The notes beneath the pieces were generated by a model that saw only the letters and a list, made by a program, of their open reading frames with translations, was not told where the DNA came from and ran no database searches. A program made the position numbers and the translations under genes. This document shows, piece by piece, positions 20,799 through 42,953 of a DNA stretch of 45,054 bases (the first letter of the stretch is position 1; the number at the start of each line of letters is the position of its first letter). This stretch comes from a phage. Where the stretch lies: sequence record PZ445537.1; one strand, 5' to 3'.

Positions 20799-21527
20799 TT
20801 CATCCGTAGTCATTGCCAGTTCTGTGGCCCTGAGTTTTTGGTTGTACAAAGAATCGGCAGGCATCTCGACACGGACGGACAAAAACTGGTCATGGGGGAT
20901 ATCGACCGGATCGCCATTGTTGATACCCAGCAGTTCGTTCCTGGCGAACGCTGGCGCGTCAGGATACGTGCGGTGAAAGGTTTTCACCAGCACCGAGCCG
21001 TCAGCGTTAACCTCATAATCCAGCCAGATCAGCGGCTGCTTGTTACGGTCTGTAGGAATGTCAAAACCGCCATCGATTCCGCCCCAGGCTGCGTCAGAGT
21101 TCAACCCTTCACACCCTTCGATAAGATACTGCCCTACGTCCAGACGGATGACCTTTATGCCTTCGGATTCATCATTGGTTTGGTATGCACCATCCGAAAA
21201 TACTTTCACCACAGGCGATGCTGCTTTCAGTGTGCCATCGCTGGCCCTCGTGGTATTGCCCGTGGTGTAAGCCTCCTGATATGACCAGGACGTGCCACCG
21301 TAATACGAAAACCACGTCCGCCTTAGAATGTAGGCCTGATGAATACGGGTTGGTCGGCTGCCCCGATTGACGACTATAGACGTAATACCGGTATTTGCAG
21401 TTAACCCGAGCTGGGTCTGTCCGTCATTTTGATGGGAGGAGAAACAGGTCGGTGTAAATGCGTCCATAGCGTCCAACAGTGGGCCGTCTCCGTTGATAGT
21501 TCCAAGCCCAAATGCGCCCACTTGCAT
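20790..21527 (-). CDS. silent tail fibre distal cassette D (inverted)
   Basis: 245 aa from ATG 21527; the same frame stays open upstream to site S3 (…LGSSATKDVGTTAGNIMQVGAFGL); C-terminal ~130 aa (NDESEG…DEGE) nearly identical to cassette A, forming a long imperfect inverted repeat. Confidence 0.75.
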   Translation of the reverse strand: MQVGAFGLGTINGDGPLLDAMDAFTPTCFSSHQNDGQTQLGLTANTGITSIVVNRGSRPTRIHQAYILRRTWFSYYGGTSWSYQEAYTTGNTTRASDGTLKAASPVVKVFSDGAYQTNDESEGIKVIRLDVGQYLIEGCEGLNSDAAWGGIDGGFDIPTDRNKQPLIWLDYEVNADGSVLVKTFHRTYPDAPAFARNELLGINNGDPVDIPHDQFLSVRVEMPADSLYNQKLRATELAMTTDEGE

Positions 21528-39760: not shown

Positions 39761-40813
39761 ATGAAAAATACTGTAAATATAAACAGTGTTGAGCTTGTCA
39801 ACGCTGACTGCCTGCTATACCTCGCAACCCTCCCAGATAACACCATTGACCTTATTGTTACGGATCCGCCGTACTTCAAAGTGAAACCCAACGGCTGGGA
39901 CAATCAATGGAAAGGGGATGAGGATTATCTTCGCTGGCTTGATATGTGCCTCGCACAATTCTGGCGAGTGCTAAAACCTGCTGGCAGTCTTTATCTTTTC
40001 TCCGGTCACCGCCTGGCGGCAGACATTGAGATCATGATGCGTGAGCGGTTCAACGTCCTGAACCACATCATCTGGGCTAAACCGTCGGGCCGCTGGAATG
40101 GCTGTAATAAAGAGAGCCTGCGCTCTTACTTCCCTGCAACAGAGCGCATCCTCTTCGCTGAGCATTACCAGGGGCCGTATAAACCAAAGAGCGACGGTTA
40201 CGCGGAGAAGGGAAGCGAGCTGAAGCAGCATGTAATGACTCCCCTAATTTCTTATTTTCGGGATGCACGTGAAGCGCTTGGCATATCCTCAAAACAAATA
40301 GCCGATGCGACTGGAAAGAAGAACATGGTGTCTCACTGGTTCAGCGGTAGCCAGTGGCAATTACCGAATGAATCAGATTACCGGAAGCTTCAGTCCCTTT
40401 TCACGCAGGTAGCCATCGAAAAGCACCAGAACGGCGAACTGGCAACACCACACCACCAGCTGGTGGCTATGTGGCATTCGTTGAATCGCAAGTATTCAGA
40501 GCTGCTCGAAGAGTACAAATCACTTCGGCGGCATTTCTCTGTTTCCGTATCCGTTCCTTATACCGACGTCTGGACACATAAACCCGTTCAGTTTTATCCA
40601 GGTAAACACCCATGCGAAAAACCCGCTGACATGTTGCGGCAGATCATCAACGCCAGCAGTAAGCCTGGTGATGTGGTGGCTGATTTCTTTATGGGGTCCG
40701 GTTCGACCGTGAAAGTCGCGCTGGAACTTGGCCGCCAGGCTATTGGCGTTGAACTCGAAGAGGAAAGGTTTAATCAGACGATGGGGGAAATACGGGCGTT
40801 GGCAGGGGAATAA
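39761..40813 (+). CDS. DNA methyltransferase (N6-adenine/N4-cytosine, beta class)
   Basis: 350 aa; catalytic motif VTDPPYF near the N-terminus and AdoMet motif FFMGSGST near the C-terminus. Confidence 0.85.
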   Translation: MKNTVNINSVELVNADCLLYLATLPDNTIDLIVTDPPYFKVKPNGWDNQWKGDEDYLRWLDMCLAQFWRVLKPAGSLYLFSGHRLAADIEIMMRERFNVLNHIIWAKPSGRWNGCNKESLRSYFPATERILFAEHYQGPYKPKSDGYAEKGSELKQHVMTPLISYFRDAREALGISSKQIADATGKKNMVSHWFSGSQWQLPNESDYRKLQSLFTQVAIEKHQNGELATPHHQLVAMWHSLNRKYSELLEEYKSLRRHFSVSVSVPYTDVWTHKPVQFYPGKHPCEKPADMLRQIINASSKPGDVVADFFMGSGSTVKVALELGRQAIGVELEEERFNQTMGEIRALAGE

Positions 40814-40819
40814 ACGTGA

Positions 40820-40841
40820 GGTCGCGATAGCGGCCTTTTTT
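40820..40841 (+). terminator. intrinsic terminator after methyltransferase
   Basis: GGTCGC-GATA-GCGGCC hairpin (one G-U pair) followed by TTTTTT. Confidence 0.5.
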
Positions 40842-40881
40842 ATTACCTCAATAACACCCGCACAGAGCGAGGTGAGAGACC

Positions 40882-41184
40882 ATGAAAATGAATGATTCAG
40901 GGAACATCTTCACGCAGTTCTTTGCGTGGGTAGCAGCTCTGGCTTCTGCCATAGGATTTACCACTCAGGATCTGGTGTTCATGTTCTTTGGCGCTGCTGG
41001 TTTGCTTATCTCGCTTGCCTCCTACATCAACGGGCGTGTAGATGCACACCGCAGGCGTAAAGAGGATGAGAAGCGAACCAAAATGGTCAATGACTACCTG
41101 AAAGGCGTTGGTGACAAACCTCTTCACGAACGTCCCGCAGCTGCAAGCGTGGTCGTTGAGGCATTACAAAAGGAAAGTGACTGA
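40882..41184 (+). CDS. holin (two TMDs, dual-start MKM motif)
   Basis: 100 aa; RBS GAGGTGAGAG; starts Met-Lys-Met (ATG 40882 and 40888) as in lambda S; two hydrophobic segments and a charged C-terminus. Confidence 0.7.
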   Translation: MKMNDSGNIFTQFFAWVAALASAIGFTTQDLVFMFFGAAGLLISLASYINGRVDAHRRRKEDEKRTKMVNDYLKGVGDKPLHERPAAASVVVEALQKESD

Positions 41185-41720
41185 TGGGGACCAGAGCAAA
41201 ATTGAGTGCTGCTGTTCTGGGGCTAGTACTCGCTGGTGCGCCAGCATCCGTCATTCTCGATCAGTTTCTGAATGAGAAAGAGGGTAACAGCCTCACGGCG
41301 TACAAAGATGGCGGTGGTATCTGGACGATTTGCCGCGGCGCCACGATGGTTGATGGTAAACCGGTTGTGCAGGGCATGAAATTGACACAGGCCAAATGCA
41401 ATCAGGTGAACGCCATCGAACGAAATAAGGCTCTGGCGTGGGTAGACCGCAATATTACGGTACCGCTTACCGAACCGCAGAAAGCCGGGATCGCATCTTT
41501 CTGCCCGTACAACATTGGGCCGGGTAAATGCTTCCCGTCCACGTTCTATAAGCGCATCAATGCTGGTGACCGGAAAGGGGCCTGTGAAGCTATTCGCTGG
41601 TGGATTAAAGACGGTGGGCGTGACTGCCGTCTGACCAAAGGCCAGAAGAATGGCTGCTATGGGCAGGTCGAGCGACGGGACCAGGAAAGCGCGCTGGCGT
41701 GCTGGGGGTTAGACCAATGA
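41184..41720 (+). CDS. SAR endolysin (T4-lysozyme-type muramidase)
   Basis: 178 aa; N-terminal Gly/Ala-rich weakly hydrophobic SAR-like segment; catalytic E-x8-D-x5-T ([16 protein letters not shown]); start overlaps holin stop. Confidence 0.85.
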
Positions 41721-42253
41721 TCAGCGAGTCTGTTAAGACCTGGTGGAAAGCCGCCACGGTTTCAGCGCTTCTCATTGCCTCATTCGCCGCAGGTAGTGTG
41801 TGGACGGAACGAGCATGGGAAAAGAAATGGGCAGATCGTAATAGTGAGGAGTCTTCTCAGGCAGAGAACGCTCAAACGGCTGCCCGTATGATTGAACAAG
41901 GGCGAGTGATCGCTCGAGATGAGGCTGTTAAAAATGCACAAGAACAGGCTGCAAAAGCGGCTGCGAATGCTGCTGGCCTGTCTGCCAATGTTAGCCAGCT
42001 GCGCACAGAAGCAACAAAACTTGCCGCCCGCCTGGACGCCGCAAAGCACACCTCAGGTCTTGCCGCTGCCGTCGGAAGCAAAACAACCAGCGCTAACGCC
42101 GCAATGCTCGCCGACATGCTCGGAAGCATTGCAGAAGAAGCTAAATACTATGCTGGGCGATCTGATGAAAGTTACCGGGCAGGAATGACCTGTGAAAGAA
42201 TTTACGACTCGGTCAGAGACTCAAGCCGGTCAGCTATCCCCGGAAAGGGATAA
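41717..42253 (+). CDS. i-spanin (Rz-like)
   Basis: 178 aa from ATG 41717 (ATGA overlap with endolysin stop); N-terminal TMD followed by an Ala/Gln-rich helical region. Confidence 0.7.
41919..42188 (+). CDS. o-spanin (Rz1-like lipoprotein) embedded in the +1 frame of Rz
   Basis: 89-aa ORF wholly inside Rz; lipobox LPMLASC; proline-rich mature part ([29 protein letters not shown]); exact start uncertain. Confidence 0.6.
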
Positions 42254-42337
42254 TGCAGCATTCATCGAAAAAGCACATCAAATGCTATCGGTAATCATTA
42301 TCATTTGATGGGTCCTCCCGGCGGGGTGGCCTACCAC

Positions 42338-42353
42338 GGGGCGGCGCCGCGGG
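42338..42353. other. candidate cos (cohesive-end) site
   Basis: GGGGCGGCGCCGCGGG then AAACGGCTAGTTTTTCG, resembling the lambda left end as recalled; contains the 10-bp palindrome GCGGCGCCGC; ~110 bp upstream of the small terminase gene. Confidence 0.35.
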
Positions 42354-42452: not shown

Positions 42453-42953
42453 GTGTTCACCATCATGGACCAGGAAATTGCCACTTTAAAACTCAATATC
42501 AACCAGCTGGCAGGGATAACCGGCGTACACCGTCAGACGGTTGCCGCGAGACTGAAAAATGTTGAACCTGCTCCAGGCAGCAACAGCAAGTTAAAGCTCT
42601 ATCTTGTGACCGAAATTCTGACCGAACTGATGATCCCTACCGTTTCGGCCAACATCGATGATATGCCCCCCTCTGACAGGCTGTCCCACTGGAAAGCAGA
42701 GAATGAGAGGCTGAAGTTCGAACAGGATACGGGGCAGTTAATACCCGCAGATGAAGTGGCGCGAGAATTCTCATTGATGGCGAAAGCCGTCGTCATGGTA
42801 CTTGAAACCCTCCCGGATGTGCTCGAGCGCGACTGTGCTTTAACGCCTGCTGCGGTAGTTCGTGTGCAAAGCGTTATTGATGATCTGCGCGACCAGATGG
42901 CGGAGAGGGTGCAGGACGCTGAAAAAGAGGAGGAAGAGCCTGAGGAGGACTGA
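42453..42953 (+). CDS. terminase small subunit (Nu1-like, N-terminal HTH)
   Basis: 166 aa (ATG 42465 is an alternative start); N-terminus MDQEIATLKLNINQLAGITGVHRQTVAARL resembles the Nu1 winged-HTH; acidic C-terminus; stop overlaps the large-subunit start (TGATG). Confidence 0.7.
   Translation: MFTIMDQEIATLKLNINQLAGITGVHRQTVAARLKNVEPAPGSNSKLKLYLVTEILTELMIPTVSANIDDMPPSDRLSHWKAENERLKFEQDTGQLIPADEVAREFSLMAKAVVMVLETLPDVLERDCALTPAAVVRVQSVIDDLRDQMAERVQDAEKEEEEPEED

Follow-up and report, generated by a model that had tools for sequence, protein, structure and literature searches.

According to PMC9636201, S21, the prototype pinholin gene, carries a dual start that yields S21-71 and S21-68 (citing Barenboim 1999), and the extra positive charge of S21-71 acts like that of lambda S107 (citing Barenboim 1999 and Park 2006). 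In E. coli K-12/DLP12, the S21 gene (essD) starts with MKSMDK and is followed by the SAR lysozyme gene rrrD and the embedded pair rzpD/rzoD. The holin gene of phage lambda starts with Met-Lys-Met, where the extra basic residue makes the longer of the two forms (S107/S105) an inhibitor; lambda S has three TMDs, belongs to class I, forms micron-scale holes and is accompanied by a soluble endolysin. In Haemophilus phage HP1, a two-TMD holin (Hol, a pinholin) is encoded directly upstream of a SAR lysozyme (PMC7312051). The lysis module of phage N15 consists of gene 52 (methylase), an annotated putative terminator between genes 52 and 53, and genes for the gp53 holin, the gp54 lysozyme and the gp55 Rz protein (DUF2514) with an embedded Rz1, and its i-/o-spanins have been catalogued as an embedded two-component pair (embedded singleton family; Kongari et al., PMC6139136).

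The cassette described here occupies positions 40882-42253 of the window (the whole stretch of 45,054 nt that was analysed) and belongs to Escherichia phage Eeyore. Its gene order and overlaps are like those of the N15 module, with identities of 66% for the holin, 91% for the lysozyme and 67% for Rz. The two modules differ in sequence divergence only, whereas the phage backbones that carry them are different, N15 being a Ravinvirus and Eeyore an integrase-carrying lambdoid phage. The second codon of the holin gene is Arg in N15 (MRM) and Lys in Eeyore (MKM), the latter giving a start identical to that of lambda. In addition, N15 gene 55 harbors an unannotated +1 ORF, which encodes a lipoprotein with the lipobox LVSC and a core like that of the Eeyore o-spanin. 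Unlike lambda S, the Eeyore holin has two TMDs and is accompanied by a SAR endolysin, an arrangement that it shares with HP1, although HP1 Hol lacks the dual start. The initial annotation had singled out the pairing of a lambda-style dual start with pinholin-style partners as an oddity; this is a false contrast, as S21 itself has a dual start, two TMDs and a SAR endolysin. The cassette type has been known since publication of the N15 genome (genes 52-55), and we place the probability that the Eeyore locus is an N15-type lysis module operating through the general pathway outlined below at roughly 80%.

Genomic setting and gene content

The genome of Escherichia phage Eeyore (PP925821) is 99.8% identical to the window over the queried 1.7 kb, with window position 40882 corresponding to position 21438 of PP925821, and the two records differ by circular permutation. 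Genes for an integrase, a CI-like repressor and a Q-like antiterminator are present in the Eeyore genome. Eeyore is a temperate lambdoid siphovirus, and the cassette is the lysis module of its late operon. The genes are arranged in the order DNA methyltransferase, terminator-like hairpin, holin, lysozyme, and Rz-like gene with embedded Rz1, with the following features:

39761-40813, DNA methyltransferase gene, upstream of the holin gene
40818..40845, + strand, terminator-like hairpin and T-run between the methyltransferase and holin genes (consensus scan)
40869..40875, + strand, Shine-Dalgarno sequence GAGGTGA serving the holin starts (read from the sequence)
40882..41184, + strand, class II (two-TMD) holin, 100 aa (PHROG 1350, hydropathy, AF2, start conservation)
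41184..41720, + strand, SAR-type endolysin (phage lysozyme/muramidase), 178 aa (PF00959, R21 alignment)
41717..42253, + strand, i-spanin (Rz equivalent, DUF2514 family), 178 aa (Pfam, PHROG, hydropathy)
41934..42188, + strand, o-spanin (Rz1 equivalent), 84-aa precursor (PHROG 11621, N15 counterpart, homolog conservation)

All four lysis ORFs that had been proposed for this interval were recovered, and PHROG and Pfam matches uphold the roles assigned to them, namely a holin, a SAR-type endolysin and nested Rz/Rz1. These lysis features go beyond chance, because all the ORFs match curated lysis families and homologs of 45-80% identity keep both the embedded ORF and the MxM start. The hairpin upstream of the holin gene (in the consensus scan, a stem of 8 bp including 5 GC pairs, with TTTTATT after it) occupies a position equivalent to that of the N15 terminator; it is a putative terminator, and late transcription, once modified by the Q-like antiterminator, presumably passes through it. 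When scanned for Rfam families and tRNAs, the window gave no matches.

Lysis would proceed as follows. The two starts of the holin gene would give rise to two products, of which the Met3 product would be the lethal holin, while the Met1-Lys2 product, carrying one extra N-terminal positive charge, would delay triggering and thus play the role of an antiholin. The endolysin would be exported by Sec and tethered in the inner membrane as an inactive enzyme by its weakly hydrophobic N-terminal SAR segment. Upon holin triggering and membrane depolarization, this segment would exit the bilayer, allowing the released lysozyme to refold and degrade the murein. The i-spanin in the inner membrane and the lipoprotein o-spanin in the outer membrane would then bring about fusion of both membranes.

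Topology, hole size and start codons of the holin

The holin, whose N-terminus reads MKMNDSG, matches PHROG 1350 (annotated as holin) at 1.8e-24, and searches of Pfam and NCBIfam with it yielded no match. Hydropathy analysis places one hydrophobic segment at residues 9-27 and a second at residues 31-49, with a TTQD turn between them, and TMD2 is followed by a very basic stretch (RVDAHRRRKEDEKR) and a conserved cytoplasmic tail of approximately 50 aa. An AF2 model built with 28 homologs places helices at residues 6-24, 28-77 and 86-99; its mean pLDDT is 67 (74-83 over the TMDs), and in view of this moderate confidence it was taken for secondary structure only. The prediction that the holin has only two TMDs is thus borne out by both hydropathy and the AF2 topology, and the predicted topology is that of a class II holin. 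The basic stretch after TMD2 suggests, by the positive-inside rule, an N-in/C-in orientation. With two hydrophobic segments and no Pfam match, the protein falls outside the class I family of lambda S, to which it has no similarity, and none of the Pfam holin families matched the query. A literature search covering N15 gp53, DUF2514 spanins and phage Eeyore retrieved no experimental paper on the N15/Eeyore holin family.

Regarding the size of the hole, the analysis leans slightly toward a pinholin, whose nm-scale holes depolarize the membrane without letting a soluble endolysin out, rather than a large-hole holin. Comparison of the holin family with S21/EssD gave an hhalign probability of 0.5%, so that homology is not detectable, and profile comparison with HP1 Hol gave a non-significant 13.6%, while the distantly related SPN3UB, BZS1 and YeP5 holins gave only sub-threshold matches to PF16080 (HP1 holin; E-value approximately 2e-4). 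TMD1 is composed of 47% Gly/Ala/Ser/Thr, and TMD2 is the more hydrophobic of the two segments (Hessa sums of +2.5 kcal/mol for TMD1 and -0.6 for TMD2), on a scale by which SAR segments and stable TMDs cannot be told apart. The stable TMDs of lambda S have sums of +4 to +5.6, i.e., less favorable than that of TMD1. Hydrophobicity on the Hessa and Kyte-Doolittle scales was therefore discarded as a way of recognizing a SAR-like TMD1, being non-discriminating when genuine lambda S TMDs score worse.

The partners of the holin are more informative. The survey comprised 201 IMG/VR loci, eight annotated phages and the metagenome-derived homolog P0088, covering three holin branches, and the endolysin N-termini of 190 loci were scored by an automatic scan and those of five more by hand. 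The endolysin N-terminus was SAR-like in all of the approximately 195 readable loci. The 190 automatically scored loci contain 85 distinct N-termini of four types (N15-like, R21-like, an R21 variant, and P1 Lyz-like with Cys), which re-assort among the three holin branches. This exclusive partnership with SAR endolysins favors a pinholin-type dependence, although the count overstates the number of independent events because many of the surveyed loci are close relatives.

The alternative is that the holin is a canonical class II former of large holes that adjoins a SAR endolysin by chance, which would make the cassette one of holin, SAR endolysin and spanins. This reading agrees with the versatility of SAR endolysins, which any depolarizing holin, small-hole or large-hole, can release, N4 gp61 having functioned in combination with a pinholin as well as with a large-hole holin (PMC12642591). 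It is also in keeping with the lack of sequence homology to S21, with the long conserved cytoplasmic tail, which is unlike S21, and with a TMD1 that contains Phe and Trp and is poorer in Gly/Ala/Ser/Thr (47%) than the SAR segments of R21 (63%) and P1 Lyz (53%). However, none of the approximately 195 loci with a usable endolysin, which represent three holin branches and four SAR types, pairs a member of the holin superfamily with a soluble endolysin, and the module clearly recombines, so that a large-hole former should tolerate soluble partners. A large-hole holin is therefore considered unlikely, albeit the strongest of the alternatives.

If the Eeyore holin is a pinholin, the N15/Eeyore superfamily (PHROG 1350 together with the SPN3UB-like branch) may represent a second pinholin family that converged on the S21 solution, a proposal that is tentative and to which we assign slightly less than an even chance. 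It would mean that the combination of two TMDs, an antiholin made from a dual start and carrying one extra basic residue, and an obligate SAR partner evolved independently of S21, with the addition of a conserved helical cytoplasmic tail of approximately 50 aa, which might take regulatory input.

The Met-Lys-Met start reported for the holin gene is present, and its reading as a dual start is backed by conservation across homologs. By position, Met1-Lys2 (40882) would begin the longer, putative antiholin and Met3 (40888) the shorter, putative holin. Among 110 representatives of the homolog clusters, 102 begin with M-(K/R/HR/QR)-M, comprising M-K-M in 73, M-R-M in 25, M-HR-M in three and M-QR-M in one, and the residue or residues inserted between the two Met always include Lys or Arg. 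In an alignment reaching down to 31% identity, M1 and M3 are invariant, while residues 4-10 are variable. The dual start is likewise kept in 184 of the 201 IMG/VR loci, while 16 lack the upstream start and begin exactly at the codon equivalent to Met3; Met3 is lost in one IMG/VR locus (MQRI) and in one cluster representative (MKL). The existence of both Met3-only and Met3-less relatives indicates that each start is able to work alone within the family. That most members nevertheless keep both starts, each of which is functional alone somewhere, fits the prediction of a holin/antiholin model.

A less probable explanation is that a single start codon is used, in which case Met-Lys/Arg-Met would be an ordinary N-terminus (for instance, one in which an A-rich second codon boosts translation) and no antiholin would be made. 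The GAGGTGA sequence lies 9 nt before ATG-1, which is near-optimal, and 15 nt before ATG-3, which is long, so that the spacing is better for Met1 than for Met3, as a single start would have it. In the same direction, approximately 8% of related loci lack the upstream start, and no regulatory RNA structure was detected at the holin starts, the 80 nt around them giving a non-significant z of -1.3; a lambda-sdi-like device setting the ratio of the two products is thus unsupported. However, Met3 is invariant amid variable neighbors, and the obligatory Lys/Arg in the insert is what is seen in S107 and S21-71. Moreover, a (G)AGGTGAGAGAC motif is conserved upstream of the holin homologs, and the single-start relatives (L202-L204) carry the same Shine-Dalgarno motif approximately 11 nt before a sole ATG that is the Met3 equivalent; some of the Met3-only IMG/VR loci likewise retain the Shine-Dalgarno motif AGGTGAGAGAG approximately 11 nt upstream. 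From this pattern of conservation, we infer that both starts are used in Eeyore and that the longer product would have antiholin activity, and consider the use of a single start improbable.

Predicted membrane anchoring of the endolysin and the nested spanins

The endolysin gene overlaps the holin gene, its ATG being shared with the holin stop (TGATG). The protein matches Pfam PF00959 (Phage_lysozyme) at 7e-25 as well as PHROG 7, and its residues 6-149, including the N-terminal segment, align to phage 21 R21 (3HDE, 8e-18) and to RrrD (4ZPU). The catalytic triad E33-x8-D42-x5-T48 aligns with the R21 motif EG..YKD..WT. The N-terminus consists of MGTRAK, with R4 and K6 preceding a SAR-like segment at approximately residues 7-25, which is hydrophobic, rich in Gly/Ala (47% Gly/Ala/Ser/Thr) and aligned with the SAR region of R21; composition and alignment thus confirm the SAR-like N-terminal segment that had been noted earlier. 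The segment lacks Cys, and the catalytic position is occupied by Asp rather than Cys. The absence of Cys from the SAR segment identifies the endolysin as R21-like and not of the disulfide-caging type of P1 Lyz. The Eeyore segment contains APA|S, in principle a possible signal-peptidase site.

Many close orthologs read ...AGASAPT..., in which the sole AxA motif precedes Pro. A Pro residue at +1 blocks cleavage by signal peptidase I, and the ASA-Pro of these orthologs therefore favors an uncleaved anchor. A cleavable Sec signal peptide, which would leave a soluble, periplasmic enzyme under some other control, is very improbable: the n-h-c layout of MGTRAK, hydrophobic core and APA|S does resemble a signal peptidase I substrate, and there is a precedent for mis-assignment in the opposite direction in T4 RI, for which PMC8385771 reports a cleavable signal in place of a SAR domain, but the R21 SAR domain to which the segment aligns is proven to be uncleaved and has an AIA|S of its own, the hydrophobicity of the segment extends beyond the putative site (SVIL), ASA followed by Pro is incompatible with cleavage, and a freely secreted active muramidase would lead to premature host lysis. 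The SAR segment of the Eeyore endolysin thus probably stays uncleaved and would be released on depolarization.

The i-spanin gene starts at ATG 41717, overlapping the endolysin stop (ATGA). The upstream GTG at 41699 was also considered as a start of Rz and was dropped, as ATG 41717 has both the ATGA overlap and a GGGGG sequence 8 nt upstream. The protein matches Pfam DUF2514 (PF10721) at 2e-45 and PHROG 312 (Rz-like spanin) at 6e-53, and it does not match the lambda Rz family (Phage_lysis, PF03245). It has an N-terminal TMD at approximately residues 9-29 by hydropathy, followed by an Ala/Gln-rich helical periplasmic domain.

The longest form of the embedded ORF (41919-42188, 89 aa) is contained entirely in the i-spanin gene, in the +1 frame at an offset of 202 nt. 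Its match to PHROG 11621 (Rz-like spanin; 1e-11) begins at residue 6. The most likely start of the o-spanin is ATG 41934. The alternative ATG at 41919 was rejected because GAGG is located 9 nt upstream of 41934 and because KMHK is kept in nine homologs, while the Met at 41919 is not. The precursor has a signal peptide with a basic n-region and the lipobox LASC, whose predicted lipidated Cys is encoded at 42000-42002; nine of the 62 residues of the mature part are Pro, and position +2 is occupied by Ala instead of Asp. The protein therefore shows the traits of an embedded spanin, with a lipobox Cys, the outer-membrane sorting expected when Asp is absent from +2, Pro richness, and an out-of-frame position inside the i-spanin gene. 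Nine o-spanin homologs of 64-81% identity conserve this start together with an L[ATV]SC lipobox and the core. The lipoprotein with a proline-rich mature region that the initial annotation placed in the +1 frame, wholly inside the Rz-like gene, is thereby confirmed, with its start refined to 41934.

Distribution, annotation and relation to known systems

At 90% identity, the holin homologs fall into 110 clusters, for which Enterobacter, Citrobacter, Klebsiella, Kluyvera and E. coli are the main sources, and IMG/VR contains 460 holin relatives. Parts of the cassette are present in 81 of 5426 complete E. coli genomes, in which PGAP labels the holin as 'hypothetical protein' and Rz as 'DUF2514 domain-containing protein'. 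Among the loci of the holin superfamily, a DUF2514-type Rz occurs in 16 of 202 and a matching Rz1 in 9 of 202, and in phage PHB10 the homology ends exactly at the lysozyme/Rz junction. The lysis module is a mosaic.

A cassette of this kind was known before, and this one has been deposited and is annotated for the most part; the substantive corrections concern annotation only. The i-spanin CDS is absent from the GenBank record of phage Eeyore, in which two spurious small CDSs (41775-41891 and 42192-42308 in window coordinates) take its place. In addition, PGAP gives a widespread holin family the label 'hypothetical protein' because there is no Pfam or NCBIfam model for it. Beyond annotation, the importance of the locus is small. 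The scheme of phage 21, with a dual-start class II holin, a SAR endolysin and embedded spanins, recurs here with a holin of unrelated sequence, and the natural single-start and Met3-less variants of this holin family could be used for tests of antiholin logic in a second, independent system.

Collectively, the Eeyore cassette has the architecture of phage 21, made of N15 gene families. Both phages have a two-TMD holin, a dual start that adds Lys and an Rz1 embedded in Rz, and the R21 and Eeyore lysozymes are homologous (8e-18) with the same E-D-T triad. However, S21 has 71 aa, whereas the Eeyore holin has 100 aa with a conserved helical tail of approximately 50 aa, and their sequences are not detectably related. 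The spanins also differ, being of the DUF2514 family in Eeyore and of the Phage_lysis family in lambda and 21. The mechanism of phage 21 is experimentally established; by analogy, the Eeyore holin would work like S21 from outside the S21 sequence family.

The endolysin/Rz junction

The junction between the SAR-type endolysin and Rz genes of the lysis cassette, at window position ~41720, is a mosaic joint. Among the 202 loci carrying a holin of this superfamily, only 16 harbor an Rz of the DUF2514 type (an i-spanin family) and only 9 an Rz1 matching it; the remaining loci encode other spanin types, including, in L004, L006, and L007, a spanin of the Pfam Phage_lysis type (PF03245). SPN3UB, a phage of a distant holin branch, contains an embedded Rz/Rz1 pair of a different type, and the similarity of phage PHB10 to the window stops at 41720. 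In addition, two related viral contigs carry a gene for a 178-aa lipoprotein (MKLLIPLLTFALAGC...) at another position within the cassette:

L202, 2349-2882: 178-aa lipoprotein gene, between the holin and SAR endolysin genes
L203, 2436-2969: 178-aa lipoprotein gene, between the holin and SAR endolysin genes

The 178-aa DUF2514 i-spanin (window 41717-42253) has no CDS in the GenBank record of phage Eeyore. The label 'Rz-like spanin' is given there to the embedded o-spanin ORF only, and the i-spanin region instead bears two overlapping annotations in other frames:

Window 41775-41891: 38-aa 'hypothetical protein', in a frame other than that of the i-spanin
Window 42192-42308: 38-aa 'hypothetical protein', in a frame other than that of the i-spanin

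Flanking elements and accessory genes

The cassette is preceded by a hairpin, and phage N15, which has the closest related lysis module, likewise has a putative terminator annotated at the equivalent position:

Window 40818-40845: terminator-like hairpin, separating the holin gene from the upstream N6/N4 DNA methyltransferase gene

Downstream, a G+C-rich motif similar to the lambda-type cos overhang (GGGCGGCGCCGC, window 42339-42350) follows the spanin genes and precedes the gene for the terminase small subunit (42453-42953). The sequence starting at 42340 matches the left end of phage LLS, for which a 12-nt cohesive end is annotated in the database record, and the deposited Eeyore record is opened elsewhere than at this cos-like motif. 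Elsewhere in the phage, the annotation of PP925821 lists a DNA invertase adjoining tail-fibre genes of opposite orientation, a queuine tRNA-ribosyltransferase homologue, a PAPS-reductase-like gene, and two further DNA methyltransferases, suggesting switchable host range and DNA modification.

Endolysin cysteines, holin start and holin tail

The endolysin (window 41184-41720) contains eight cysteines (C50, C72, C107, C116, C134, C148, C158, and C173), none of which lies in the SAR segment and three of which fall in a C-terminal extension beyond the local alignment with R21, the SAR endolysin of phage 21; disulfide formation in the periplasm is possible.

Variants of the holin start occur naturally, in loci L201-L215 (IMG/VR) and L108 and in the homologous protein P0020. 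In ~16 loci the Met3-equivalent codon is the only start, the upstream ATG-AAA being missing, while Met3 is lost in one locus (MQRI) and one cluster (MKL).

The tail of this holin family (residues ~50-100, window 41030-41181) is a conserved cytoplasmic stretch of ~50 aa, far longer than that of S21, the pinholin of phage 21, and predicted by AF2 to be helical. Seven positions (R52, E61, R65, T66, K79, P80, and R84) show no variation in the alignment, which includes homologues with as little as 31% identity; P85 is likewise unchanged across the 28 closer homologues. This tail could serve as a regulatory surface.
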